In this document: in pieces, positions 23,203 to 44,099 of the stretch
How the letters are laid out: each line of letters opens with the position of its first letter
How positions within the stretch are numbered: position 1 is the stretch's first letter
The notes under the pieces: generated by a model
The model's input: the letters and a program-made list of their open reading frames with translations, nothing else
Told to the model about the DNA's origin: nothing
The model's database searches: none
Made by a program: the position numbers and the translations under genes
Source of the DNA: an uncultured archaeon
GTDB lineage: Archaea > Nanobdellota > Nanobdellia > Pacearchaeales > GW2011-AR1
Assembly: GCA_903873955.1 (NCBI GenBank)
Contig: CAIQQL010000042.1
Span: 1-44,099, forward strand
Direction of reading: 5' to 3'
Length of the DNA stretch: 44,099 bases

Positions 23203-24036
23203 TTACTCTTTTTGAAGCTCATAACCTTGATAGGGCATCTCCTTACCCTGATAGAGAACAAAGGGGTTGCCATCCGGATGGAATTTATCCTGATGCAAAG
23301 CAAATTCTCCATGAGATATCGCTCTGAGAGCAAAGCGTAGGGAAGGCCAGTCACTGCTTTCCTTCTGAAAATTTTGATGCTTGCCCGCCTCGTTTTGAGT
23401 TATAGGGCGGTCACCAGCATAGGCAATTGATGGTCCCGTGACCAGAATTGCACCAGCATCAGTCTCTGGATCTACCAAAATAATCGAAGACCTCGTCATT
23501 GTCTCACCGGCATGCAATGCGTCAAACACAGCATTTTCACCAATGTAGGTTCTTGAGCCGTCAGGATTAAGTTTTCCAAGATAAGCAGGATGGACATTGA
23601 TCGCACGGTTAGTAAACCTTCGTTGCAATGCTCCTTTGAATAACCTCATATACCCTGCTAGCAACGCCAAATCAAAAACGAAACCTTTTTCTTCCTCAAA
23701 CCCTGCCACCAATCGAAGCAGTTCATGATTATAGACCTGTGATTTCTGTTCATAGGCAACCCTCCCTTCAATGGTTTGCTGGGCAGTTTTCCAGCTCCCA
23801 CACCATTCAAGACCTGGAAGAGTACGGTGGGCAATCCCATATTCTTTGGCATATCTAATTGCACCGATAGTCTCGCCTTTCTTTGTTTCCTTGTCAGTCA
23901 CCAAAAGGTCGATAGAGAAATTACTGCCCGGTAACCTCGACTCCAAGACCGCTTCCCTAAAATTCGTCCCGCTGCCTGATGCGAATGCGACCACTCTCAT
24001 CGTGCCACGAGCCGGATCAAAGATCATTTCACCCAT
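23203..24036 (-). CDS. purN: phosphoribosylglycinamide formyltransferase (PurN-like) with a C-terminal extension
   Basis: VVAFASGSGTNF, LAGYMRL and INVHPAYL (with an insertion before the second half), then ILVDPETDAGAIL. I prefer ATG 24036, 1 nt after the TAA of the upstream gene, to the tracked GTG at 24075. Confidence 0.75.
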   Translation of the reverse strand: MGEMIFDPARGTMRVVAFASGSGTNFREAVLESRLPGSNFSIDLLVTDKETKKGETIGAIRYAKEYGIAHRTLPGLEWCGSWKTAQQTIEGRVAYEQKSQVYNHELLRLVAGFEEEKGFVFDLALLAGYMRLFKGALQRRFTNRAINVHPAYLGKLNPDGSRTYIGENAVFDALHAGETMTRSSIILVDPETDAGAILVTGPSIAYAGDRPITQNEAGKHQNFQKESSDWPSLRFALRAISHGEFALHQDKFHPDGNPFVLYQGKEMPYQGYELQKE

Positions 24037-24037
24037 C

Positions 24038-25999
24038 TTAAAAGGTAAGTTCGGGCTCTTTTGAAGAGCCGACACCTTTATTTTTGATTAGGATACCCGT
24101 TCTCTTTGTTATTTTTCCCGCACATCTGGCTTCGATGCCGTGCTCTTGCGCAAGTTTCAGCACTTTCTCGGGCTCAGGCGTGATGACCAGCATGCCGTTC
24201 CCCATATTCCAAGTCCTATATGCCTCAGCATCTTTGATATTCCCTAACTTTTGGCAGTGCAACATAATAGGGGCTGGCTCAAACAAGTCACCCAAATCAG
24301 CACCAAGACCGCTTGGCTTGAGAATCCTCCCCAGCTTCCCCGGAATGCCTCCGCCCGTTACATGCACAACCCCGTGAAGTTTCGCTTTCGCTTCTTTTGA
24401 GATCCCTCCATGCATATCCACAATTGCATTGCAGTAAATCTTTGAGGGTGTCAGTGCCAATTTACCAAGAGAATTGCCGTTAAAATCCGTCAAATGCCAG
24501 TCTTCTCCATAGGCTTGCTTAAAGACCTTCCTGGCCAGAGAAAGCCCATTGGACCTGAATCCTGCTTCCTTCAATGCAACAACAGCATCTCCTTCTTTTA
24601 TTTCAGACCCTGTGAACAACTTGCCCTTATTTGCAAACCAGACAAGACCCGCACCCCAGTTATAATGAAAGTCTCCAAACCCTCCAACCTGGGCCCCAAG
24701 CTCAGCGAGTTCGCCATTGATGATCGCTACATTCGCCGCTTTTGCAGCATCAACATATCCTCTGGCCAACTGGAGCATCTGGACAATCTTGGAGTTATCA
24801 TCAGAGCCCAACGAGTTTACATCTAAGATTGAACCGACGAGCACAGGTTCCCCGCCCCTGACTACCGCATCATCACACACCATCGCTAAAAGGTCAAATG
24901 CGATCGTACTATGGTCGTTTAGCCTTTCAGCTATCTCGACTTTGGTGCCAATGCCATCAAATCCTAAGCACATCATGGTCCCTGCTGGAAGCCCGCTCAC
25001 ATCAATCATCCTTAATCCCGAGAAATCATCAAAGGGGACAATGACCTCGCCAAGCAGACCTTTCCGGTTCTGCCAAGTCTGCTTTGCAGCATGATACAGG
25101 ATTTTGGATGCGTCATCTCCCAACTCAATGTTGACCCCCGCATCAGCATAACTAAGCGCATCATTCTTTAACTCCCTGGAAAGCATCGGATGCTCAAGGA
25201 CATAATTTACAGCATTACGAAAAAGAGTCAAGGCCGGTTCGTAAAACTCAGGGATCTCGCGATGCTGTCTTCTGAGACTTTCCCGGACATTATGAAAATC
25301 AGGGGCATTTGCAAAAAATAGGGCCCGTTCAGGATGAGGCATCATCCCCAGGATTCTCCCGCTTTTATCGCAGATCGCGGCAATATCACTTACAGACCCG
25401 TTAGGGTTGTAAGGAAAGACCCCATCTGCAAGATCCCCATTCTGCAGGGCATATCTGAACACAATCTGCTTATTTTCTGACAGTTCCTTGAGCACCTCGC
25501 TTGTCGCATAAAACTTGCCTTCGCCATGGGCCACAGGGACATGAAGGATATCAAGATTTTTTGCAAAGACGCTGAGGTCACTTTGTTTTTTCAGGTGCAC
25601 CCATCGGCATTCATACCTTGCAGAGTTGTTGAATGTCAATGCCACTTCCCTTTCCCCATAATTGTTCTTCAGGGCAGGCAAAAGACCGAGATTCACCAGT
25701 ATCTGAAAACCGTTGCAGATGCCAATAATCAGCTTTTCTGCCTCAATGAACTCCAGCAGTTCCTTAAAAATATTCAGTCGTATCTTATTTGCCATGGCGA
25801 TGCCTGAGCCCGTATCATCACCGTAAGAAAACCCTCCTGGAAACACAAGGACCTGATAATCCTTAAGACTCTTTTCCCCGTTGATCAGGTCATTGATATG
25901 AACGATATCCGCTTCTGCGCCAGCCAACTCAAAAGTGAACTTCGTCTCCCGTTCGCAATTAATGCCATATCCTGATAAGACTAACACTTTTGGTTTCAT
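24038..25999 (-). CDS. purQ-purM: fusion protein: FGAM synthase glutaminase (PurQ-like) N-terminal domain plus AIR synthetase (PurM) C-terminal domain
   Basis: The N-terminal ~280 aa carry the triad context GICNGFQ...HGEGKF...MPHPER. From about LSYADAGVNIELGDD onward the sequence follows PurM (FDGIGTKVEIAE...DLLAMVCDDAVVRGGEPV...HVTGGGIPGK). Confidence 0.85.
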   Translation of the reverse strand: MKPKVLVLSGYGINCERETKFTFELAGAEADIVHINDLINGEKSLKDYQVLVFPGGFSYGDDTGSGIAMANKIRLNIFKELLEFIEAEKLIIGICNGFQILVNLGLLPALKNNYGEREVALTFNNSARYECRWVHLKKQSDLSVFAKNLDILHVPVAHGEGKFYATSEVLKELSENKQIVFRYALQNGDLADGVFPYNPNGSVSDIAAICDKSGRILGMMPHPERALFFANAPDFHNVRESLRRQHREIPEFYEPALTLFRNAVNYVLEHPMLSRELKNDALSYADAGVNIELGDDASKILYHAAKQTWQNRKGLLGEVIVPFDDFSGLRMIDVSGLPAGTMMCLGFDGIGTKVEIAERLNDHSTIAFDLLAMVCDDAVVRGGEPVLVGSILDVNSLGSDDNSKIVQMLQLARGYVDAAKAANVAIINGELAELGAQVGGFGDFHYNWGAGLVWFANKGKLFTGSEIKEGDAVVALKEAGFRSNGLSLARKVFKQAYGEDWHLTDFNGNSLGKLALTPSKIYCNAIVDMHGGISKEAKAKLHGVVHVTGGGIPGKLGRILKPSGLGADLGDLFEPAPIMLHCQKLGNIKDAEAYRTWNMGNGMLVITPEPEKVLKLAQEHGIEARCAGKITKRTGILIKNKGVGSSKEPELTF

Positions 26000-28977
26000 G
26001 CAAAACTCCTAAACCTTCGTTTGTAATGCTTTTCAAGCTCACCAACGTCGGTCTGCACAATCTTCGCTCCAGAAAGTCCCTGGATGATGAAGTCTCCAGA
26101 GATCACTTTACCGATTTTTGAAAATCCGGCATGGGCAAAGATACTTTCAAACTCCTTTTCCGATTCCGGAGCAACACTCACCAAGATTCGCGATTGGCTT
26201 TCACTGAAGAGAAGCGCATCATCCCGGTCCGCATCCCCGCTCCGTTTCATTTTAGCAAGATCCACTAATGCCCCGAGTTCTCCGGCGATACACATCTTGG
26301 CCAAAGCGATACCCAATCCTCCAGAATTCACAGGTATGCTGCTTGCTATGATCCCTTTATCAACTGCTTTGCTAAATTCAGAATAAAGTTCGACCGCCTT
26401 GCCGGCATTGACCTTAGGGACCTTGTTCCCGATGTAAGGCTTGCCCGTATTCTCTTTCCCAGCAAAATCAAAATATTCACTTGCCCCCAGCTCGTTTTTT
26501 GTTTCTCCCAGAAGATACAAGGTGTCCCCAGCATATTTTGCGTCAAGAGAAACTGTCTTTCGATAGTCTTCGATAACACCCAGAGAAGAGATAAGCAAGG
26601 TAGGCAGCACTGAAATCTTCACTGCATTTCCAAGTTCATCAAATCCTTTGAAATCATTAAACATACTGTCTTTGCCAGAGATGAAGGGAGTTTTGTACGC
26701 CAAGGCATAGTCATAACAAGCCTTTGCGGCAGCCTTGAGTTCACCAAGCCTTCCAGGTTCATCAGAACTGCACCAACAAAAATTGTCCAAGAGCGCCAGT
26801 TTTTGCAGATCTCCGCCTGCCGCAATTACATTCTTAATCGCGGTGTCGATTGCACAAGCAGCCATATGATACGGATTGATGAGGCTATACCTTGCGTTAA
26901 TTCCCTGGCTTGCGATAACTGCCTTCTTTGAATCTAAAAGAGGCCTTATTGCCGTCGTATAGGCATTGACCTCCCCTTTTCCTTGCACGGGCTTGAGAAT
27001 AGAACCTCCCTGGACCTCATGGTCATACTGCCTGGAGATAAAGGAAAAACTGGCAAGATTATGCTGTCTTAGCATCCCCAGCAAACTTGAAGTCAGGTTT
27101 GGAGGACAAGAAAAGGCAGGCTCATCATTCCAGGCCTTGGTTGTGATTGATTTGAGTTTCTTTTTAGGGACCCCGTCATGCAAGAACATCATGTCCAGGT
27201 CCAATATTTTTTTATTGTCATAGTTCACTACAGCCCTCCTAGATTCATTGAACTCTCCAATGATTGTTGCCTCAACACCCCGCTTTTCCATCAACTTCAG
27301 GAATTCGTCAGACTTTTCCTTAGGCACAGATAAAGTCATCCTTTCCTGCGACTCACTCACCCACATTTCCCAGAGTTGGATACCTGCATATTTTACCGGC
27401 ACTTTCTCCAAATCAACGACAAAACCTCCACATTCACGCGCCATCTCTGCGACAGAACATGACAGCCCACCTGCCCCATTATCAGTTATACTGTTATAGA
27501 GAACCGCATCTCTTGCTTCCTTGACAAGAGCATCACTCATCTTTTTTTGGGTGATTGGATCCCCAATCTGCACCGCAGTAGCGGGGCTTCCCGAGTCAAG
27601 TGCCTCTGATGAAAATGTAGCCCCGTGTATCCCATCTTTGCCTACCCTGCCACCTACAACAACAATATAGTCTCCTGCTTGCGCCTTCTTGAGATGCCCT
27701 TGAGTCCCTGCAATAGTTCGAGGTATAAGCCCCGCAGTACCTACAAAAACCAGCGGCTTGCCTTTATAGCTGTCATCAAAATAAACAAAGCCCTGTGGAG
27801 TCGGGATTCCTGAACAATTGCCACCGACCTTTACTCCATCGATGACTCCTTCCATGATCCTTAAGGGAGAAAGCGCAGGGTTGGTCTTATTTTTCCCTCT
27901 ATAGAGAATGCTCTTGTCTTCAGGATAACCAAAACAAAACCCGTACCGATTCATGATAGGGAGCGCCCCCTGACCAAAACCGATGGCATCCCTATTCACC
28001 CCGACAATGCCTGTGATTGAACCTCCAAAAGGATCAAGTGCAGAAGGGCTGTTATGGGTCTCCACTTTGTCAGTCACCAGATAGTGCTCATCAAAGATGA
28101 TCCCTCCCGAATTATCTTCAAAAACCGAGACGCAGAAATCGCGATCCCCCTTCATGGCCCGAATCTTGTTTGTGGCGTTTCTGATATAGGTCTTAAATAT
28201 CCCCTCCTTCAGTTCATCAAGCTCATTTGCAAAGATAGTATGCTTGCAATGTTCGCTCCATGTCTGGGCTATCGATTCCAGTTCAATGTCAAAAGGCATC
28301 CTCCTTTCTTCCTTCAAGAAATATTCCCGTATCACTTTCATGGACTCAAGGTCAAGAGCTAACGGACCTCTTCTTGAGCCATCAGCATTCATGATGCCTT
28401 GCTTGCCTATCTTGCTCAGCTCCTCATCACTCACCTCGAGATTAACCGTCTCAACAGCAGGAAGATCGAGGAGTTTAACTCGCGGGACAATATAGCTCAT
28501 GCCCTTCTCTTTCAGATATCTTTCCCGGCTTTTAATTGAAATACGGTTGATGAGTCCATTTGCCAACTGGTTTGCGATCTGTATTGTCTGGGGTTCGGTC
28601 AAGGTTCCTGTTACCAAGAACAGCTGCGAGCTAAAGACAGTTCCCTTCTCAAGACTCAAACGAAACAGATCAACAATCCCTTCCTGTACTGTGTTTGCTA
28701 TGTTATCCGTAACACCTGGAAGAAAACCAATCTCAATCGCCCAATCAGCTTTCATCTCCGTCGGAGCATCAATGATGAAGCGCTGTGTTATTGGATTTGC
28801 AAGCATCTGCGCGATGAATCGTAGTTGCTCTGGAGAAAAATCGTAATCAATGGTATATACCTCAACCACCTGGACATCAAGGATTTTTTCAGTTATCCCG
28901 AATGTGAGCATCTCTTTCTTTTTAACGCCGGCTCTCGCATCAGGGATTCTCGAAGAAATTTCTATCCGATGAGCCAT
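25996..28977 (-). CDS. purL: FGAM synthase, large-type N-terminal (PurS-like) domain plus synthetase domain, lacking the glutaminase domain
   Basis: 993 aa. PurL blocks ETHNSPSALDPFGGSITG, DNGAGGLS, ESQERM and GGLG are present. About 200 aa N-terminal to the synthetase core resemble the PurS-like/linker region of large PurL. ATGA overlap with purQ-purM. Confidence 0.88.
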   Translation of the reverse strand: MAHRIEISSRIPDARAGVKKKEMLTFGITEKILDVQVVEVYTIDYDFSPEQLRFIAQMLANPITQRFIIDAPTEMKADWAIEIGFLPGVTDNIANTVQEGIVDLFRLSLEKGTVFSSQLFLVTGTLTEPQTIQIANQLANGLINRISIKSRERYLKEKGMSYIVPRVKLLDLPAVETVNLEVSDEELSKIGKQGIMNADGSRRGPLALDLESMKVIREYFLKEERRMPFDIELESIAQTWSEHCKHTIFANELDELKEGIFKTYIRNATNKIRAMKGDRDFCVSVFEDNSGGIIFDEHYLVTDKVETHNSPSALDPFGGSITGIVGVNRDAIGFGQGALPIMNRYGFCFGYPEDKSILYRGKNKTNPALSPLRIMEGVIDGVKVGGNCSGIPTPQGFVYFDDSYKGKPLVFVGTAGLIPRTIAGTQGHLKKAQAGDYIVVVGGRVGKDGIHGATFSSEALDSGSPATAVQIGDPITQKKMSDALVKEARDAVLYNSITDNGAGGLSCSVAEMARECGGFVVDLEKVPVKYAGIQLWEMWVSESQERMTLSVPKEKSDEFLKLMEKRGVEATIIGEFNESRRAVVNYDNKKILDLDMMFLHDGVPKKKLKSITTKAWNDEPAFSCPPNLTSSLLGMLRQHNLASFSFISRQYDHEVQGGSILKPVQGKGEVNAYTTAIRPLLDSKKAVIASQGINARYSLINPYHMAACAIDTAIKNVIAAGGDLQKLALLDNFCWCSSDEPGRLGELKAAAKACYDYALAYKTPFISGKDSMFNDFKGFDELGNAVKISVLPTLLISSLGVIEDYRKTVSLDAKYAGDTLYLLGETKNELGASEYFDFAGKENTGKPYIGNKVPKVNAGKAVELYSEFSKAVDKGIIASSIPVNSGGLGIALAKMCIAGELGALVDLAKMKRSGDADRDDALLFSESQSRILVSVAPESEKEFESIFAHAGFSKIGKVISGDFIIQGLSGAKIVQTDVGELEKHYKRRFRSFA

Positions 28978-32033: not shown

Positions 32034-32474
32034 TTACTTTTCCAGAAACCGTTTTTTCAATACGTCGAGCTCAACCTTTGGAATTTCTTTAAAGACGTCC
32101 TTCTCAAAAATCTGACTTTTTTCATACAGCTCGTCAAAAAGCGCACGAGGTTGCAGATGGACATGCAGGTGATGTACTTTTAGCTTGTCCTCTTTTTGAA
32201 ATGGCCGATAATTTATTCGGACGTCGCATCCTGATGCGATTTTATCCAAGATTTGTTGCTGGAACTCAATAACCGTATCGAAGAGTTCTTGCTGTTCAAT
32301 AGAGGTCAACTCCTTCAGTCTTTCAACATGCCGTTTAGGCACGACCAAAAGGTGACCTGGCATCAAACGAGGGTTACTGAATATGACCCTCACAGTTTCC
32401 CCTTCTTTTAAAGTCCGCGTTATTTCCAAATTGAGATCACAAAAAGGACAGCCCATACATGCAACAGGATACAT
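32034..32474 (-). CDS. HIT-family (histidine triad) nucleotide hydrolase/transferase
   Basis: N-terminal CPFC, LLVVPKRH and the histidine triad HHLHVHLQP. Confidence 0.8.
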   Translation of the reverse strand: MYPVACMGCPFCDLNLEITRTLKEGETVRVIFSNPRLMPGHLLVVPKRHVERLKELTSIEQQELFDTVIEFQQQILDKIASGCDVRINYRPFQKEDKLKVHHLHVHLQPRALFDELYEKSQIFEKDVFKEIPKVELDVLKKRFLEK

Positions 32475-36497: not shown

Positions 36498-36559
36498 CCT
36501 CCCCCTAACTTCCATAAAACCGGAGGAGAGATTATATACTTCCAGTCTCTTCTGTGGTG

Positions 36560-37384
36560 ATGGGTGCAAGAGCCGTAAAACTCCCCGATGGAACTGAAGA
36601 GAAGGAATATCTTTTTGGGTTAATCAGAAAAACCAGGCCAAAGTTTAAGTATTTCTGGCAAAAAAACGCAGAGATGAGCTATTTCTCGCCGAAGTTTTAT
36701 CCCCATGACTATGAGGGCAAGAATTACGACGAACGAAAGAAACATGCATATGGTGATGCCAAGAACACACGCCAGTTTTATCAAGACCTAATTGACAAAG
36801 GAGTATTTCCAAAGGGCGCAAAAGTCAAGGTGAAAAGAATCAGACACGAAGACGGATTTGGATTGGAATTTTTTATACCCCATTTACGACCTTTGCCAGG
36901 ACATACTTCCTTGAGATATGTCTTTACAGATACTCCCAACTCCCAGGATCGGCAGATAGCACATAAGCTTGAAGAAGGGATTACCCGATGCAAGAAAGAG
37001 ATTGAAGAAACCGCTAAACGGTATGACTATGCTGGAGGATTGAATGAAGATGTGGGGTATAGGAGAAATTATGGTCTTGATAAATCAGGAGAGGTGAGAA
37101 TCCATGATGTCCATATATTATCTGGAAGTTTACCGAGCAAGTTCAAATTAGAGAGCGGAAAAACAATCGGGCAGTTCTATGGCCTCCATAGAGAAAGAAA
37201 CCTTGAAAGAAGAGCCGTTCTCCCGATCCTGCTCATTTTAGTAGCTGCAGGTTTAAGTCTGTATGGACATGAAACGCAGGGTCTTATCATCAAAGATTTA
37301 CCCAACCCAACAAACCTTTTTTTCATCCCTCTAGCAATCCTGTTTATTGTTATGATCTGGGTAGGATATAGATTAAATAAATGA
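36560..37384 (+). CDS. hypothetical protein with a soluble ~215-aa domain and two C-terminal TM helices
   Basis: ATG 36560 (the tracked start is a GTG 6 nt upstream). C-terminal AVLPILLILVAAGLSLY and LFFIPLAILFIVMIWVGY. No recognisable motif. Confidence 0.45.
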   Translation: MGARAVKLPDGTEEKEYLFGLIRKTRPKFKYFWQKNAEMSYFSPKFYPHDYEGKNYDERKKHAYGDAKNTRQFYQDLIDKGVFPKGAKVKVKRIRHEDGFGLEFFIPHLRPLPGHTSLRYVFTDTPNSQDRQIAHKLEEGITRCKKEIEETAKRYDYAGGLNEDVGYRRNYGLDKSGEVRIHDVHILSGSLPSKFKLESGKTIGQFYGLHRERNLERRAVLPILLILVAAGLSLYGHETQGLIIKDLPNPTNLFFIPLAILFIVMIWVGYRLNK

Positions 37385-37496: not shown

Positions 37497-38789
37497 ATGG
37501 TGAGGATTGTAGTGGTTGATTCCGGTGCGAGGGGCAATGCCCTATTGTACGCTTATGCCCATAGCTTAAAGGAGTCCCAACAACCCTTTGAAGGATTAGT
37601 TCTCGGTTCGCTATGCGCATCCCGTGAGGATTATGTTGACCTTGGCAATAAAGAGCAGGTATTAGACAGAATACTCAGGTATAACCCTGATCTGGTCGAT
37701 GTTGCACAGGATGAGGCACTTGCCTCGGGATTGGTCGATACACTGCGAGAAAGAGGCGTTAAGGTCTTTGGCCCAACAAAGAAAGCTTCAAGAATCGAGT
37801 GGGATAAACTTTGGGCCCGAGATTTCATGAACCGACATCAGATCCCCACTCCAAGATATGCTTCTTTTGGCCATGCGCAAGAAGCCCAAGCGCGAGAATA
37901 TGCTTTACGCTTAATCGCTGAAGGGAAAAAAATATTTTTTAAAGCCGCAGGATTATGTGCGGGAAAGGGCGTGGTCGGAGCCTCAACCAAATTGGAAGTT
38001 GAAGCAGCCATCAGAACAATGCAAGAGAGAGGGGCCGCATCGCAGGTCTATCTTATTGAAGAAGGCATCATCGGTGAAGAGTTTTCATACTTTGCCATTG
38101 CCGATGGGAAGAGCTTTCATTGCTTTAGGTCCGCACAAGACAATAAACGCATCTATGATGGAGACAACGGTCCAAACACTGGAGGTATGGGAGCACACTG
38201 TCCGGCATTGATCACTAAGGGAATAGATAAGAGGATCATCGATACCATCATCCGCCCAACTTTCCAAGGGCTTGCCCAAGAAGGAACGCCCTACACAGGG
38301 ATATTATATCTAGGAGGCATTGTAACTTCAAGCGAAGAAATAAACGTCATTGAGTTTAATTCTCGCTGGGGAGATCCGGAATGCCTGGTCGTTCTTCCAG
38401 GGATCAAAACCAATTATTTCGAACTCATAACCAAAACAATTGAGGGAAGGCTGTCAGAGATGCATCCTGAAGAAGATAGCCTGTTCAGGGTAGCGATAGT
38501 TGGTGCATCCCGAGGGTATCCAGATGCCTATGAGAAAGGGAAAAGAATCACTTTTGATTCAGGAAAATTTCCAAAGCAGTGCTGGATAGTTCCAGCCGCA
38601 GTAGTTGAAAGAGACGGCGCGCAGTATACCAACGGGGGCAGATTGTTCAGTGTAGTTGCTCAGGGAGAAAACTTGCGGGAAGCCCAAAAAATCGCTCTTC
38701 AAGGAATGTCCTGCTTTGCAGTAGAAGGGAACGGGTTGCATTTCAGAAAAGACATAGGATATCGAGATTTAAATCGGAATAAGAATTGA
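37497..38789 (+). CDS. purD: phosphoribosylamine-glycine ligase
   Basis: MVRIVVVDSGARGNAL, an ATP-grasp core (KAAGLCAGKGV, EEFSYF) and IEFNSRWGDPE. Confidence 0.9.
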   Translation: MVRIVVVDSGARGNALLYAYAHSLKESQQPFEGLVLGSLCASREDYVDLGNKEQVLDRILRYNPDLVDVAQDEALASGLVDTLRERGVKVFGPTKKASRIEWDKLWARDFMNRHQIPTPRYASFGHAQEAQAREYALRLIAEGKKIFFKAAGLCAGKGVVGASTKLEVEAAIRTMQERGAASQVYLIEEGIIGEEFSYFAIADGKSFHCFRSAQDNKRIYDGDNGPNTGGMGAHCPALITKGIDKRIIDTIIRPTFQGLAQEGTPYTGILYLGGIVTSSEEINVIEFNSRWGDPECLVVLPGIKTNYFELITKTIEGRLSEMHPEEDSLFRVAIVGASRGYPDAYEKGKRITFDSGKFPKQCWIVPAAVVERDGAQYTNGGRLFSVVAQGENLREAQKIALQGMSCFAVEGNGLHFRKDIGYRDLNRNKN

Positions 38790-38802: not shown

Positions 38803-40110
38803 TTATCTAAAACGGCGACTGTTGCCTCGCTGAAATCTTCCCCGTGAACTCCCGCGATCACCACCACGATTACCGCCCCGGTTTCCACCCCAGTTACCGC
38901 GACTTGAACCACCAGATCTCTGGAATCTCCCTCTTCCTCCACCACCACGACGCATACGTGCACTCTTCCGATCGGCGTTTGAACTGAAGGTGATAGGTAT
39001 AACATTAAAGACTGGAAGCGCATCCTTTTCAATGTCTAGGGAAATTTCCCTGCAAATCTGCCTGAACTCAGTATGATCTCCAGAGGACACGAAGCTGATG
39101 GCAATACCATTTTTCCCTGCCCTTGCAGTCCTGCCAATACGGTGAATATAGTCAGTCCCTGTGCTAGGCAAATCAAAATTATAAACATGAGACACATCTT
39201 TTATATCAAGGCCTCTTGCAGCAACATCAGTACATACGAGAATAAGAGTCTGTCGTGCATGGAACGCTTCGAGAGTGTGGCTGCGTTTATTCTGTGAGAG
39301 CCCACCATGAATCGCCATGGAATGAACACCTTCATGCTTGAGGGCATCACATAAGCGATCAACATTTCTTCGAGTATTACAAAATACCATGACTACACCA
39401 TTTTTTTCCAATTTTAATAGATGTAATAATAAGGAAAACTTCTGTTCCGCTGAGACATCATAATATTTTTGATAAAGCAGCTTGGGATCAACCTTATTGT
39501 CTACTTCTATAAGAACAGGATTCACCATATGCCTATTAGCAATATGCTCAATCTCCTTGGAGATTGTTGCAGAAAAAAGAAGAGTCTGTCTCTCTTTTGG
39601 ACAAGATTGGATTATCTTCTCAACATCCCTAATAAAACCCATATCCAGCATCCTGTCGGCCTCATCCAGAACCAGGTATTTTATTCCCCGAAGGTTTAAT
39701 GTGTGGTGGTTAAGATGGTCTAAAATCCTTCCTGGAGTCCCAACAACAATATCAGCAAATCTCAGTTCACGTATCTGCGGCCCCATAGAAACGCCACCAA
39801 ATATCTCCTTTACTTTCAATCCCTGAGGTTGTGAAAACATCCTTAACGTAGTAGCCACCTGTTCAGCTAATTCTCGCGTGGGAGTAAGGACGAGCAGTTG
39901 CAGGCCGCTGCCCCGTTTCATCCTGTCAATGATACCTGCCCCGAAAGCAAGCGTCTTTCCGGAACCTGTTGCAGAGCTACCAATCACATCCTTGCCCTCT
40001 ACTACCAAAGGTATGGTTTTTGCCTGGATCTCGCTAGGTTCGCTAAATCCTTTAGCTTTTATGACCTGCAAGATGCTTTCATGCAATCCTAATTGTCTGA
40101 ATTTTTCCAT
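38803..40110 (-). CDS. DEAD-box ATP-dependent RNA helicase, paralogue of 6094..7368, with an RGG tail
   Basis: Same motif set (SATGSGKT, PTRELA, VLDEADRM, SAT, HRIGRTARAG). The tail reads RRGGGGRGRFQRSGGSSRGNWGGNRGGNRGGDRGSSRGRFQRG. Confidence 0.9.
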   Translation of the reverse strand: MEKFRQLGLHESILQVIKAKGFSEPSEIQAKTIPLVVEGKDVIGSSATGSGKTLAFGAGIIDRMKRGSGLQLLVLTPTRELAEQVATTLRMFSQPQGLKVKEIFGGVSMGPQIRELRFADIVVGTPGRILDHLNHHTLNLRGIKYLVLDEADRMLDMGFIRDVEKIIQSCPKERQTLLFSATISKEIEHIANRHMVNPVLIEVDNKVDPKLLYQKYYDVSAEQKFSLLLHLLKLEKNGVVMVFCNTRRNVDRLCDALKHEGVHSMAIHGGLSQNKRSHTLEAFHARQTLILVCTDVAARGLDIKDVSHVYNFDLPSTGTDYIHRIGRTARAGKNGIAISFVSSGDHTEFRQICREISLDIEKDALPVFNVIPITFSSNADRKSARMRRGGGGRGRFQRSGGSSRGNWGGNRGGNRGGDRGSSRGRFQRGNSRRFR

Positions 40111-40231: not shown

Positions 40232-40271
40232 AAAAAAACTATGGAAGGAGGATCAGTTCATCACGTCCTCC
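40232..40271 (-). terminator. GC-rich hairpin plus T7 tract downstream of the HerA-like ATPase gene
   Basis: On the minus strand, GGAGGA-13 nt-TCCTCC begins 8 nt after the TAG. It is followed by TTCCATAGTTTTTTTC. Confidence 0.45.
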
Positions 40272-40279
40272 CATGACGA

Positions 40280-42469
40280 CTACTTCACCGGATAGAGCAG
40301 GATGTTTGCATGCACCAAGAGATCCTTTCGTGCAGGATTATAAGAAAGGCTTTTTGTCAGCGTATGGGACTTTTGGTAAAGCTTACTTTCAAGGGATTTT
40401 ATCTTCTCTTTGGTTTCTTGTCGGTTTTTAGCTATTTTCAGCTGCAAAAGTTTATTTTTTTGTCTGAGCTTCCTTATGAGGCGTTCCTTCTTCCGGATTT
40501 CCCGCGTCTTATCTGAAAGACGATGATTACCAAAAAGCCGCTTGACCAGGCGCCCTGCCTTTATTGCGCTTGTACGGTTACGAATTGAATTCAGTTTATG
40601 CTTATTTGCCTTCTGGACTGCAAGAATTTTCATCTCCTTTCTCCTCCCTTTTTCTATCAGAACCCGCGTTGCAGAAAGAAGCTCTTCTTTCATAAAATCA
40701 TAATTTGACTTGATCACCATACCCTTTTCTTCTCCAGTGATCTGCGTCACCTTGCTTGCATAAAGTCTTTTCTTTAGATGCGCCTGACTATCCTTGACTG
40801 CTTGGTAGATTGACTTTTTTATGCTTCTTTTCGGGGTAGGCAAATGAAAGGATTGTCTTCGAAGAGCCTTCCAGTTGCTCGACTGGATCTCATGAGCCTG
40901 GGGATCTGTCTTGTTGCTTAGGTCAAATATGTAGGGGCCAATAACCGGAAATCGGTTGCGGTTGAAAGGTTTAGGCTCAATCGTGACACATAACAGGGGA
41001 AGATACTCGCCTGCTGGCGATTCAACAACGAGGGTTTGTGTGGTATCTGCATACTGCGCTATCTGAGCCTTGAGCTTTTTTAGGATTGTAAGAGAATGAT
41101 TTTGTGCTGCCTTAGAGTATAACGTTTTTTTGGGCGCAGATATATTTGGCAGTTCAAGGGGATTTTCATTGATAGGCCTTGTTTCAGGATGGTTTATCCA
41201 ACCAATATCCTTATCCAGCAAAGGTCCAGCATGATAACTATAGAGCCAACGAGCATGAATCTTCAGACTTTTATTCTCTACCGCATTGTTGTAGAAAAAA
41301 TCTCCTGTCTTGAAAGTGATGAGTGCCTCCTTGAGGGTGGCAAGTGAAATACCTATGGCCGTTGCCACTTTGTCCATATCATTTTCCGTGCGAAGCTTGC
41401 CGATAAAACGCGTCCCGATATTACCCAAGACCTTGTAGTCAATATCTCCAGGGTTCTGGGTAGCGAGAATGATGCCCAGGCCAAATGCGCGTGCCTGGCG
41501 TATCAGTATCTCAAGAGACTTCTTGCAGGGAGGGTTTGCAGGAGGCGGAGGAAGAATTCCGGCCAGTTCATCGATATAAAGGATGTACTGCAGCTTGTCA
41601 GTGCCTCCCCTGTGTAGGAGAAATCGATAAAGTTCCTGAAGAATTTGCTCGATTGCATATTGCTTTTCTTCTGTCGACCCTGTAAACCTCAGGTCAAAGA
41701 TAGAAAGGTTACCTGGTTTTAAAAGGGCTTCAACATCAAGCTTGCTTCCCGCTTTCCATGCCTGCTTAGAAGGAGAAGAAAGAATCAAATTGATGGAAGA
41801 AGCTATCTTTTTCCTGTCCTGTTCTTTAAGAAAATCATCCATGCTCAATGTTCCCAGCTGAGTAAAAGGAGGATTAAGGATCTGTCCAATGAGTGACTCG
41901 AGAGTAAGATCCTGCCCTGCACTCCAGTTGTACAAAATCAAAGAGGAAATAAGAGACTTCGCTTTCTCATAGTTGGCAGTGAGCCCTGCAAGCTGACAGA
42001 GAGATTCTGATAAAGGATCGATCAAACTTGAAGGAAGCGAAGCATCTTTCTCAAGTTCTGTTTTAAAATCCTTTGGAGCCGCCAAATCAGGCACCAGGCT
42101 CACTTGCAGACCAACAGAGGATTTTGGAGTAAATATCTTGGTTTTAACCTTGCTCAACGCATCCAGCTTTGCAGGTTGGAAATCCTGGAAATTCGAGAGA
42201 TAAAGCGACTGGGTTTTTTCAGGATGAGCAACAAAAGGTGTAAAGTCAAAGGTTTTGTTCGTAACACCTAACCCGCCAATGTCTCCTTTTGGATCAATGG
42301 CGATAACAGGAATACCGCTGGCTAAAGCCTCTTCAATCACTACCTTGCACATCACGGTCTTTCCAGAACCCGTAGTCCCAAGAATTGCGGCATGCTGCGT
42401 CAGGCTATTTAGATCATACTGCACTTCCTTTCCTTGATCTACACTAAAACCGATACCTGCTTTTTTCAT
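40280..42469 (-). CDS. HerA/FtsK-superfamily (DUF87/DUF853-like) P-loop ATPase with a ~300-aa C-terminal extension ending in a Lys/Arg-rich coiled coil
   Basis: Walker A AILGTTGSGKT followed by IPVIAIDPKGD, Walker B YILYIDELAG, and the family-typical RAFGLGIILATQNPGDIDYKVLGNIGTRFIGKL. The C-terminus reads RKKERLIRKLRQKNKLLQLKIAKNRQETKEKIKSLESKL. Confidence 0.7.
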   Translation of the reverse strand: MKKAGIGFSVDQGKEVQYDLNSLTQHAAILGTTGSGKTVMCKVVIEEALASGIPVIAIDPKGDIGGLGVTNKTFDFTPFVAHPEKTQSLYLSNFQDFQPAKLDALSKVKTKIFTPKSSVGLQVSLVPDLAAPKDFKTELEKDASLPSSLIDPLSESLCQLAGLTANYEKAKSLISSLILYNWSAGQDLTLESLIGQILNPPFTQLGTLSMDDFLKEQDRKKIASSINLILSSPSKQAWKAGSKLDVEALLKPGNLSIFDLRFTGSTEEKQYAIEQILQELYRFLLHRGGTDKLQYILYIDELAGILPPPPANPPCKKSLEILIRQARAFGLGIILATQNPGDIDYKVLGNIGTRFIGKLRTENDMDKVATAIGISLATLKEALITFKTGDFFYNNAVENKSLKIHARWLYSYHAGPLLDKDIGWINHPETRPINENPLELPNISAPKKTLYSKAAQNHSLTILKKLKAQIAQYADTTQTLVVESPAGEYLPLLCVTIEPKPFNRNRFPVIGPYIFDLSNKTDPQAHEIQSSNWKALRRQSFHLPTPKRSIKKSIYQAVKDSQAHLKKRLYASKVTQITGEEKGMVIKSNYDFMKEELLSATRVLIEKGRRKEMKILAVQKANKHKLNSIRNRTSAIKAGRLVKRLFGNHRLSDKTREIRKKERLIRKLRQKNKLLQLKIAKNRQETKEKIKSLESKLYQKSHTLTKSLSYNPARKDLLVHANILLYPVK

Positions 42470-42582
42470 TAGTCAAAATCTCTTTCCATCATAAGAAACA
42501 AGGCAGTCTTATTAACTTTTTGCCCAGAAACATTGTGAAGGAGATAAGACAGAATCAAAGGAGACAGATTGGGAGAATACTC

Positions 42583-42744
42583 TTAAATTTGCCCAGTTTG
42601 GATAAATTTTCTCATGGCTTGTTCCAAAAGTACCTGCGGAGCAAAACCCTTCTTGCTACAAGCCTTCATAAAATCGTCATAGACGGCACCATCAACATTA
42701 TAGTCGAGTTTCTTTTTTCTTGCACCAGGTGCTGTTGCTGCCAT
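42583..42744 (-). CDS. ribbon-helix-helix (CopG/Arc-like) small DNA-binding protein, 53 aa, absent from the supplied ORF track
   Basis: My translation of the minus strand gives MAATAPGARKKKLDYNVDGAVYDDFMKACSKKGFAPQVLLEQAMRKFIQTGQI*. This has a basic N-tail, a beta-strand (KLDYNVD) and two helices, which is the canonical RHH layout. TATA and an inverted repeat lie upstream. Confidence 0.5.
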   Translation of the reverse strand: MAATAPGARKKKLDYNVDGAVYDDFMKACSKKGFAPQVLLEQAMRKFIQTGQI

Positions 42745-42774: not shown

Positions 42775-42791
42775 GTAACTAGAAAAGTTAC
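42775..42791. promoter_or_regulatory. inverted repeat GTAACT-AGAAA-AGTTAC abutting the TATA box (candidate RHH operator)
   Basis: 6-bp perfect arms with a 5-nt spacer, immediately upstream (minus-strand sense) of the TATA box at 42766-42773. Confidence 0.35.
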
Positions 42792-42929: not shown

Positions 42930-43580
42930 TTATTTAGCCCGCAGGGTAAATTCAACCCGATTCGTCTCAGAACCTGGAAACCCAGCTAAATCTTTTGGTC
43001 TATAGGTGTAGAGATTTGTGCAGTTCAGGATAAATCCTCCCTTAAGTATTGCATAACGACCCTTAGATAGAGGAGGCGTCAATTCGCCGTTAATATTTAC
43101 CATTGTTGTTAATGCTGCTCCTCCAAAATAGACTATAGATGCATTCATACGCCAAGGTCCCAGAGCAATAACTCGGTTCTCCGCATCAGTCATATTTACA
43201 AATATAGAGAGGTTACTCGTGTCAAATAGAGTAACATTTCCAAGCACTGACCAGTTCCCCACTGTACGTTGATTATTTTGCGTAAGTAAGCTTATAACAT
43301 CAATTGTATTGTTCAGAAGAACCGTCGTATAAGCCATCTGTTTTGTCAGATTTGCTATAGCACTTGCACTACTCTGCGATTTCAAGTAGGTGATGTTCCA
43401 ACTTAAAGAATTAATCTTGGTGTCTATTTCAGCCGCGGTATACACAGGTGTGCCACCTTTGACTGAGGACACTGAGATGCTGTTACCCGTTAAATTAACA
43501 GTTGCAATACTGGAGATTACAGAAACTAGTAAAGAAATTACGATTACCGTAAATATACTAACCCCTTTATTTTCAACCAT
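42930..43580 (-). CDS. surface protein with a class III (type IV pilin-like) signal peptide, rich in N-glycosylation sequons
   Basis: N-terminal MVENKG/VSIFTVIVISLLVSVISSIA has a short charged leader ending in KG and then a hydrophobic helix. There are 10 N-x-S/T sequons in 216 aa. A strong SD GGAGGTG lies 5 nt upstream of the ATG. Confidence 0.55.
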   Translation of the reverse strand: MVENKGVSIFTVIVISLLVSVISSIATVNLTGNSISVSSVKGGTPVYTAAEIDTKINSLSWNITYLKSQSSASAIANLTKQMAYTTVLLNNTIDVISLLTQNNQRTVGNWSVLGNVTLFDTSNLSIFVNMTDAENRVIALGPWRMNASIVYFGGAALTTMVNINGELTPPLSKGRYAILKGGFILNCTNLYTYRPKDLAGFPGSETNRVEFTLRAK

Positions 43581-43673: not shown

Positions 43674-44099
43674 TCAATGAGTCTGTCTCTTAGATCTTGA
43701 TTGCTGCCTGCCTTGTTTAGGAAGAAACTCTTTTCCAATGCTAAATCTGTTCTTCGACACTACCAATATCCATCTTGGATAATTATGATGATTTTGGGCC
43801 CCATGCCATCGATTGAAAAAATCAAGATAGCCCATCTTGAACTTCTTCCCATTCCAAGGATCGTTAAAAATGATATATTTAGATGTAAAACCGACAACGA
43901 CCGCATAGTGGCCGACATCAGATGAGGGTTCGATAAAATGCACTATCACCGGTAATCCTAAATTAATAAAATGTAAAATCTCATGTAAACTCGAGTTATC
44001 ATGGACATAGCAGTAAAAACCCTCTTTTCTTGCGACCTCAATCAGGAACTTATGAGACGTCCCATCAGGAGTTGTACGAGCCAGCTTTGCAATCGCCTC
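43674..44099 (-). CDS. peptidase C39-like (papain-fold) domain protein, C-terminal part (5' end outside the window)
   Basis: The minus-strand frame is open from 44099 (EAIAKLARTTPDGTSHKFLIEVARKEGFYCYVHDNSSLHEILHFINLGLPVIVHFIE...). GHYAVVVGFTSKYIIFNDPWNG matches the C39 His-block pattern gH.vVv.G......i.DP..G. The tracked GTG at 43949 is internal. Confidence 0.55.
   Translation of the reverse strand, partial: EAIAKLARTTPDGTSHKFLIEVARKEGFYCYVHDNSSLHEILHFINLGLPVIVHFIEPSSDVGHYAVVVGFTSKYIIFNDPWNGKKFKMGYLDFFNRWHGAQNHHNYPRWILVVSKNRFSIGKEFLPKQGRQQSRSKRQTH

Follow-up and report, generated by a model that had tools for sequence, protein, structure and literature searches.

A YjgR/DUF853-type ATPase with a basic C-terminal module and a conserved 53-residue protein: two most probably independent neighbours in a Woesearchaeota-type archaeon

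The DNA studied here, called the window in its entirety, is a stretch of 44,099 nucleotides (contig CAIQQL010000042.1) from an uncultured archaeon of the Woesearchaeota type (Nanoarchaeia, DPANN). On its minus strand, and in the order of transcription, a gene for a 53-residue protein, a 113-nucleotide spacer, a gene for a 729-residue ATPase, a 169-nucleotide spacer and a gene for a DEAD-box RNA helicase follow one another. A first-pass annotation had grouped the first two genes into a functional module, where a small ribbon-helix-helix (RHH) regulator would accompany a motor related to HerA and FtsK. The explanation that best accounts for the whole of the data, with a probability of about 0.6, is that the genes do not depend on each other and that the ATPase is a chromosomal hexameric motor acting on nucleic acids with the help of basic arms. 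That these are two independent chromosomal genes, adjacent in this genome only, is highly probable in its own right.

Gene order and co-occurrence

The relation between the two genes has been examined in both directions. Using tblastn, no match to the 53-residue protein was found in 90 loci containing relatives of the ATPase, nor in the other loci of the full-length ATPase subfamily (25 after removal of duplicate contigs). Conversely, the ATPase had no match in 80 loci of the small gene, representing 754 kb and up to 6 kb on each side. A two-gene functional module finds no place in these numbers (0/80, 0/90 and 0/25), and no co-occurrence of the putative RHH gene with this ATPase subfamily emerges across the 80 small-gene loci and the 25 deduplicated subfamily loci. 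Moreover, the small gene occurs in many more genomes than the ATPase gene and is much better conserved. In the window, the ATPase gene stands between two genes, the small gene and the helicase gene, which are adjacent to each other in several other genomes. Since the small gene adjoins other genes elsewhere, its adjacency to the ATPase gene seems to result from a local rearrangement. That the ATPase gene arrived by mobile insertion was also considered and rejected, because flanking direct or inverted repeats do not rise above chance and because the guanine-plus-cytosine content is ordinary (0.40-0.45 over both genes for a window mean of about 0.43).

A dedicated unit, whether a regulator with its motor, a toxin-antitoxin-like pair or a defence pair, would have the RHH protein repress the operon through the inverted repeat that abuts the TATA box of the small gene. 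The position of this repeat, the common strand, the 113-nucleotide gap devoid of an oligo-T run and a TATA-like element of the ATPase gene that is weak here as compared to homologues could all be read in that sense. However, beyond the zero co-occurrence and the unequal frequency and conservation of the two genes, the repeat is not conserved, the homologues of the ATPase gene have a TATA-like box of their own, located at about -33 to -25, and the small gene is linked elsewhere to a DEAD-box helicase gene or to an RGG/zinc-ribbon gene. Such a unit is largely refuted by synteny and deserves hardly any credence. The apparent operon is most probably an accident of gene order, and the pair should not be catalogued as a defence or toxin-antitoxin-like system.

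No partner gene is conserved around the ATPase either. When all open reading frames (ORFs) within 4 kb were clustered for 26 ATPase loci, no neighbour family occurred in more than four of them, and the four loci sharing a neighbour form one close synteny group (FKBP, Spt5, FtsZ and a methyltransferase). Around ATPase homologues, the neighbours in ten gene-called contexts are housekeeping genes that differ from one context to another. Neighbours in other genomes include the proteasome, TruD, GatB, ProRS, FtsZ and Spt5; in the window they are PurD, the DEAD-box helicase and purine-synthesis genes. Adjacency of a DEAD-box helicase to the ATPase was found only in the window. The gene for TruD lies downstream of the ATPase gene on the same strand in 3/26 loci (L002, L179 and L182), at 0-180 nucleotides from the stop codon, and overlaps it or comes within 20 nucleotides in two of them. 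In locus L091, TruD is encoded just upstream of the 53-residue protein gene. The proximity of TruD to both genes may be due to chance or may be the vestige of an earlier gene order.

The usual partners of HerA-like ATPases had been reported as missing, and they are: neither NurA, Sir2, a DUF4297 protein nor a coupling protein appears among ten neighbours scanned with PADLOC or among the flanking and larger window proteins scanned with Pfam. NurA, Mre11 and Rad50 are likewise absent from the scanned neighbours in the window and from the Pfam-annotated genes of the gene-called homologue loci.

The ATPase core and its family

The 729-residue protein is a stand-alone P-loop ATPase of the HerA-FtsK superfamily, of the YjgR/DUF853 type. 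The HerA/DUF853-type core noticed in the first-pass annotation is borne out by its motifs and by two Pfam families above cut-off, DUF87 (48.8 bits) and HerA_C/DUF853 (PF05872; 62.6 bits for a gathering cut-off of 22, in two stretches). The alignment with PF05872 covers only profile positions ~10-70 and 240-330 of 502, leaving the remainder of the profile and the whole C-terminal part of the protein unaligned. In an alignment of 42 homologues, the Walker A glycines G31, G34 and G36 are invariant together with S35, K37 and T38. The DPKGD motif, D300 and E301 of Walker B, Q338, R354 and R360 are also invariant. The conservation of these catalytic motifs suggests an active enzyme. By analogy, R354 and R360, downstream of the ATQNPGDID motif, are candidate arginine fingers, and Q338 would have a functional role along with them.

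An AlphaFold model built from the 42 homologues has a mean predicted local distance difference test (pLDDT) score of 86.5. A helical insertion, at about residues 65-250, is predicted between Walker A and Walker B. In agreement with the initial description, no transmembrane segment is apparent in the protein; the best 19-residue Kyte-Doolittle mean, 1.61, is located inside the ATPase core. With the first 430 residues as a query, Foldseek retrieves HerA, DndH-C, VirB4, Sir2-HerA and other defence HerA proteins, with a probability of 1.00 and expectation values (E) of 1e-14 to 1e-9; those of HerA, DndH-C and VirB4 range from 1e-14 to 1e-11.

The best structural match to the core is archaeal HerA from the HerA-NurA end-resection machine (PDB 4d2i and 9x1m; E 1e-14 for 4d2i), with a template modelling (TM) score of about 0.5 on the target and the superfamily motifs in common. 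However, true HerA has a HAS barrel. The barrel is missing from the window protein, where Walker A starts at residue 31 and is preceded in the model by two short strands only. In addition, NurA, Mre11 and Rad50 are not encoded nearby, the identity is 15-18%, and the NCBIfam HerA models NF040819 and NF040937 score 24 and 27 bits for cut-offs of 970 and 800. More generally, matches to the NCBIfam models for HerA, antiphage HerA, TraD, CedB/CedD and VirB4 do not extend beyond the Walker A or the Walker B/sensor region and reach 18-40 bits for cut-offs of 366-970. The identities of canonical HerA, TraD or another type IV coupling protein, CedB/CedD and VirB4 were rejected, the matches being confined to Walker A or far below curated cut-offs.

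The closest sequence of solved structure is YjgR from E. coli (PDB 11kk), with E 4e-11 from the single sequence and 1.5e-14 from the family profile. YjgR resembles the window ATPase in that Walker A stands near the N-terminus, a HAS barrel is missing and a long insertion separates Walker A from Walker B; DxKGD and QNPxDI occur in both proteins. The resemblance has limits: only two stretches, of about 45 and 120 residues, can be aligned, and neither the middle insertion nor the part beyond residue 400 is alignable. YjgR, with about 500 residues, has no counterpart of window residues 453-729. YjgR/DUF853 proteins form a large branch of the HerA-FtsK superfamily, extending from E. coli to archaea and without an assigned function; literature searches on the function of YjgR/DUF853 gave incidental mentions only and no functional study.

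In a first protein search, about 65 homologues were full-length, with 720-800 residues and 31-68% identity, the labelled ones coming nearly all from Woesearchaeota or Nanoarchaeota; many other relatives matched the ATPase core only. Apart from the window's own copy, no homologue exceeds 68% identity. These homologues are already present in public databases as 'DUF853 family protein', 'helicase HerA-like domain-containing protein' or 'ATP-binding protein'. Among GTDB species genomes, a subfamily motif scan found 36 loci, about 25 of them with the C-terminal module described below. The subfamily was counted with a Walker-B/RQARAFG pattern, C-terminal motifs being unsuitable for this purpose since no stretch of that region is conserved enough. 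Several contigs carrying the Woesearchaeota-type gene (L183, L197, L179, L184, L188, L193, L195 and L200) are labelled Acidobacteriota, UBP3 or 'uncultured Methanosarcinales'; these labels probably reflect mis-binned or mislabelled content of metagenome-assembled genomes and not transfer.

A family-specific C-terminal module with a basic hairpin

Downstream of the core, a linker of variable length and sequence (pLDDT <50 at residues 444-456) leads to a module of 277 residues that is particular to this family. According to the AlphaFold model, this module consists of a helix (residues 453-471), a beta domain (residues 476-572), two antiparallel helices (residues 582-646 and 652-703) and two closing strands (residues 705-727). 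The closing strands return to the beta domain, so that the helical hairpin is an insertion within it. Modelling residues 452-729 separately leaves the topology unchanged, with a pLDDT of 89.6. At 1.5 Å per residue, the length of the hairpin can be estimated at about 8-10 nm.

The region is strongly basic. Residues 561-700 contain 30% lysine and arginine, have a net charge of +29 and include no proline. This richness is kept column by column throughout the family (30-41%), although the residues themselves vary. The initial description, a C-terminal region of about 300 residues with a heptad-like segment rich in lysine and arginine, therefore stands as to the extent (about 280 residues) and the charge but not as to the heptads: in a simple Fourier test, the power at a hydrophobic periodicity of 3.5 residues is near zero. 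The tail region is helical and basic, and a canonical coiled coil is not demonstrable.

The module appears to have been undescribed so far. Foldseek, queried with the C-terminal 278 residues, returned nothing significant in the PDB (best E 0.1) or in BFVD (best E 0.03). Its top matches (Wzc, IpaB, the dynein stalk, the iSH2 region of PI3K p85, Vipp1 and SMC fragments) were discarded as generic long helical hairpins. No recognisable enzymatic effector domain was found in the ATPase protein by the Pfam scan or by the Foldseek searches of the module in these two databases. Searching 1.84 billion representative proteins with the module profile yielded 43 proteins only. In every match of about 720 residues or more, the module is C-terminal to the ATPase and starts at about residue 450-540. 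The shorter matches resemble fragments; at least one of them, P0163, with 290 residues and a Met start, could represent the module as a separate or split copy.

One longer relative, P0181 (892 residues), was retrieved by the module profile with E 6e-9. It provides a link between the family and relatives of 850-900 residues (P0181, P0070 and P0082; from Woesearchaeota, Nitrososphaera and Chloroflexota), which belong to the same ATPase clade with 37-44% core identity. P0181 is the one member through which the module itself is connected to these longer proteins, a profile-profile comparison of the module with the Nitrososphaera relative P0082 having given no signal (probability 0.1). The longer relatives keep the same order of elements, that is, a WL.S.H.GPL motif, the linker, the beta domain, the helical hairpin and the closing beta strand. 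They differ by less basic hairpins and by about 8-10 further CxxC zinc-ribbon motifs clustered at the C-terminus, whereas the window subfamily ends after the closing strand. Cysteine-rich zinc ribbons are typical of nucleic-acid-binding proteins. Judging from these sequences, the window subfamily looks like a version that lost the zinc-ribbon cluster and gained charge in the hairpin.

Possible roles of the ATPase

By analogy with characterised relatives (FtsK, HerA, TrwB, DndH and TdpA), the ATPase would assemble as a ring-shaped hexamer. ATP would then drive the movement of the hexamer along a nucleic acid, or the pumping of this nucleic acid, double-stranded DNA being the most probable substrate. 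The flexible linker would tether the family-specific module to each subunit and the small beta domain of each module would project its basic antiparallel hairpin over roughly 8-10 nm. Six basic arms could thereby capture or hold a polyanionic substrate, DNA or possibly RNA, around the ring and would replace the partner proteins used by other HerA-like motors. The housekeeping setting of the gene argues for a cellular role in chromosome handling rather than for a role linked to mobile elements or defence, and the ATPase may serve chromosome or nucleoid handling in the Woesearchaeota clade. As a mechanism, a DNA motor of this kind is tentative, at somewhat less than even odds. The module nonetheless provides a concrete hypothesis that can be put to the test, namely that the basic arms hold nucleic acid.

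A bolder version may also be imagined. In reduced genomes, a partner-less YjgR-type hexamer with six basic arms of about 8-10 nm would be a lineage-specific chromosome or nucleoid motor of Woesearchaeota, gathering and translocating DNA and thereby doing work that is carried out elsewhere by FtsK, SMC or HerA-NurA. This version is a long shot. If true, it would give a first functional handle on the whole DUF853/YjgR clade, up to E. coli, to which the Woesearchaeota subfamily adds an appendage without a match.

Several observations weigh against the explanation preferred here. Translocation of DNA is extrapolated from distant relatives, with 12-18% identity in the structural matches. The arrangement of the domains relative to one another in the ATPase model is uncertain (predicted TM score of 0.60). 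The best PADLOC match is mad8, an ATPase from a defence system (E 2.7e-20). Furthermore, the subfamily occurs in only about 25 GTDB species genomes as compared to at least 137 for the small gene; it does not belong to the universal core of the class and may have an accessory role that is patchy or restricted to a clade. Finally, the two genes may be co-transcribed locally in this genome, given the absence of an oligo-T run between them and an ATPase TATA-like box weaker than in homologues.

Besides a DNA motor, other roles may be considered. In one of them, the ATPase would remodel RNA or ribonucleoproteins, its hairpin binding structured RNA (tRNA or rRNA) in the manner of the coiled-coil arms of some RNA-binding enzymes. 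A strongly basic hairpin of variable sequence would suit such a role. The gene for TruD immediately downstream in 3/26 loci and the presence of Spt5 or a DEAD-box helicase nearby in some loci also point in this direction. However, these RNA-related neighbours are inconsistent across loci and the helicase adjacency is unique to the window. Moreover, to our knowledge, all characterised nucleic-acid-binding relatives of the HerA-FtsK superfamily act on DNA. A role in RNA remodelling is accordingly unlikely, if a little less so than the other roles discussed below.

Slightly less probable again is an antiviral defence system made of a single gene, in which foreign DNA would be detected by the HerA-like ring, with the C-terminal module serving as sensor or effector. 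Here, the match to mad8 is accompanied by matches to several defence HerA profiles. The core resembles in fold and in profile the ATPases of defence systems (Sir2-HerA, HerA-DUF4297, DndH, TdpA and mad8 of MADS), and the occurrence of the gene in no more than a part of the species genomes of Nanoarchaeia would be in line with such a function. Nevertheless, the defence ATPases work with an adjacent effector or within a multi-gene operon, and the window ATPase has neither: no partner gene is present among the ten neighbours scanned or conserved in the 26 clustered loci, and the scans of the protein itself give no recognisable enzymatic effector domain. The neighbourhoods are made of housekeeping genes and not of defence islands. 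The NCBIfam model NF042943 (HerA_antiphage) scores 33.8 bits for a cut-off of 800. MADS is an operon of eight genes (bioRxiv 10.1101/2023.03.30.534895); it was rejected as an identity, eight genes being needed and no MADS component having been found among the ten neighbouring proteins scanned with PADLOC. For the two proteins and these neighbours together, PADLOC returned similarities of the ATPase core, generic superfamily 2 helicase matches (the DEAD-box protein) and one weak match of 32034-32474, about 8 kb away, to the HIT-family profile ThsC2, without any partners. The functions in defence, DNA transfer or toxin-antitoxin systems suggested in the first-pass annotation thus gain no positive support beyond the generic similarity of the ATPase core.

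Finally, a membrane-associated ATPase of the TraD/VirB4/CedB type could be proposed, which would mediate transfer or secretion of DNA or protein between the DPANN cell and its host with the basic helices docking on the membrane. In favour of this role, DPANN archaea depend on hosts, and there are weak N-terminal matches to TraD, CedB, CedD, TrwB and FtsK profiles as well as the structural match to VirB4. Type IV coupling proteins and CedB, however, have N-terminal transmembrane segments and accompanying transfer genes, and the window ATPase lacks both. The profile matches are limited to the Walker A region (residues 5-64) and are far below the cut-offs (39.7 for 366 and 38.5 for 700), and no secretion, pilus or Ced genes lie nearby in any examined locus. 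A transfer ATPase is therefore improbable, more so than a defence ATPase.

The 53-residue protein and its promoter

The small gene is a real and conserved gene. Translation starts at the ATG at 42744 since nearly all homologues are exactly 53 residues long and begin with MA(A/S)T. The homologues fall into 42 protein clusters with 60-94% identity and 16 invariant positions, and at least 137 species genomes with the labels Woesearchaeota, Pacearchaeota or Nanoarchaeota (Nanoarchaeia) carry the gene. Within this class, the protein ranks with the best conserved of the small proteins; it has no annotation and may merit a study of its own.

A basic N-terminal tail, MAATAPGARKKK, precedes a possible strand-helix-helix. 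The protein of the window has no Pfam or NCBIfam match. Within the family, sub-threshold similarity to RHH proteins can be detected: Pfam ParG is hit by 5/21 members (best E 0.031) and the family profile compared with PDB 1p94, the structure of ParG, gives E 1.3. The size, the flexible basic tail and the strand-helix-helix pattern recall ParG and other RHH proteins. The 53-residue protein differs from ParG by the lack of a significant RHH-family match and of a ParA/ParF-type partner, and by being encoded by a single-copy chromosomal gene with 60-94% identity across a whole archaeal class. From its sequence, it is probably a DNA-binding dimer of the RHH type. The small upstream gene on the same strand noted in the first-pass annotation is thus confirmed as a conserved ORF, and its RHH fold is plausible from these sub-threshold ParG matches.

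The TATA box of the small gene recurs at an equal distance in two orthologous loci, L091 and L093; in L095 it lies farther upstream. In the window, 22-29 nucleotides separate the box from the ATG, which implies a leaderless or near-leaderless transcript. Both the promoter and the inverted repeat attributed to the small gene exist in the window, but the arms of the repeat have 6 base pairs and the repeat is not conserved in orthologues. No equivalent is seen upstream of the orthologues in L091 and L093, and a different repeat overlaps the TATA box in L095. On the basis of its sequence and position, the repeat of the window is a possible operator.

Elsewhere, the small gene has other associations. 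Directly upstream of it on the same strand, 16/80 loci encode an RGG-rich zinc-ribbon protein (about 150 residues, CxxC...CxxC). The orthologue of the window's DEAD-box helicase, with 55-74% identity, directly adjoins the small gene in about 6/80 loci. These associations hint at an RNA-related role of the small protein.

Other features of the window

The coordinates of the features discussed here are collected in Table 1.

Table 1. Features of the two genes and of their surroundings in the window (positions 1-44099).
Feature	Position	Strand	Remarks
Inverted repeat GTAACT-TTTCT-AGTTAC	42775..42791	-	6-bp arms; abuts TATA box
TATA box TTTATAAA	42766..42773	-	22-29 nt upstream of small gene ATG
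53-residue protein gene	42583..42744	-	ORF; ATG at 42744
729-residue ATPase gene, YjgR/DUF853 clade	40280..42469	-	ORF; stop codon 40280-40282
ATPase core, residues 1-430	41180..42469	-	AlphaFold pLDDT mostly 85-95; invariant residues in alignment
Walker A GTTGSGKT, residues 31-38	42356..42379	-	G31, G34, S35, G36, K37, T38 invariant in 42 homologues
DPKGD (within IAIDPKGD), residues 59-63	42281..42295	-	Invariant in 42-homologue alignment; DvKGD in E. coli YjgR
Walker B YIDELAG, residues 298-304	41558..41578	-	D300, E301 invariant
ATQNPGDID (within ILATQNPGDID), residues 336-344	41438..41464	-	Conserved polar residue after core strand; QNPsDI in YjgR
Variable linker, residues 431-452	41114..41179	-	Low confidence; length and sequence vary, K/S-rich in homologues
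Family-specific C-terminal module, residues 453-729	40283..41113	-	Model, profile search
Antiparallel helical hairpin, residues 582-646 and 652-703, apex FGNHRLSDKT	40361..40726	-	Models and composition, 30-40% K/R
GGAGGA/TCCTCC stem with 13-nt loop (40247-40271), then T7 run (40232-40238)	40232..40271	-	Downstream of ATPase stop, read from sequence; probable transcription stop
DEAD-box RNA helicase gene	38803-40110	-	Canonical; C-terminal RG/RGG-rich tail of ~70 residues

Downstream of the ATPase gene, the stem and the T7 run that had been taken for a terminator are both present, but the loop is 13 nucleotides long and the stem was not reported by a standard or consensus terminator scan. Oligo-T stretches are established archaeal terminators. 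The T7 run alone is a plausible terminator of this kind and transcription probably stops at 40232-40271. Matches to sigma-70-type promoters in the window are at background level only. This, like the failure of the terminator scan, is what one expects of an archaeon.

No tRNA gene was detected in the 44-kb window by a tRNA scan, nor any Rfam family at the gathering threshold. Apart from the genes discussed above, the window is ordinary chromosome, encoding PurD, PurL, a PurQ-like fusion, a formyltransferase, a P-type ATPase and a radical-SAM enzyme. The ORF at 36554-37384 has no Pfam match. Upstream of the small gene, a 216-residue ORF (42930-43580, minus strand) has a hydrophobic N-terminal segment and many N-x-S/T sequons, without a Pfam or PADLOC match; it possibly encodes a glycosylated surface protein or a pilin-like protein. 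Further on, a 91-residue ORF with a GTG start (43674-43949, minus strand) matches only the C-terminal end of papain-like peptidases (C70, E 7.5e-4; C39, E 1.3e-3). It could be a truncated gene, an ORF with a wrong start or a remnant.

Finally, the window carries a purine-synthesis cluster on the minus strand (23203-28977), to which PurD (37497-38789, plus strand) can be added. The cluster encodes a formyltransferase, a 653-residue protein in which a PurQ-type amidotransferase is fused to AIR-synthase-like domains, and a 993-residue PurL-like protein. Genomes of the DPANN type are frequently devoid of purine synthesis, which makes its presence here notable.

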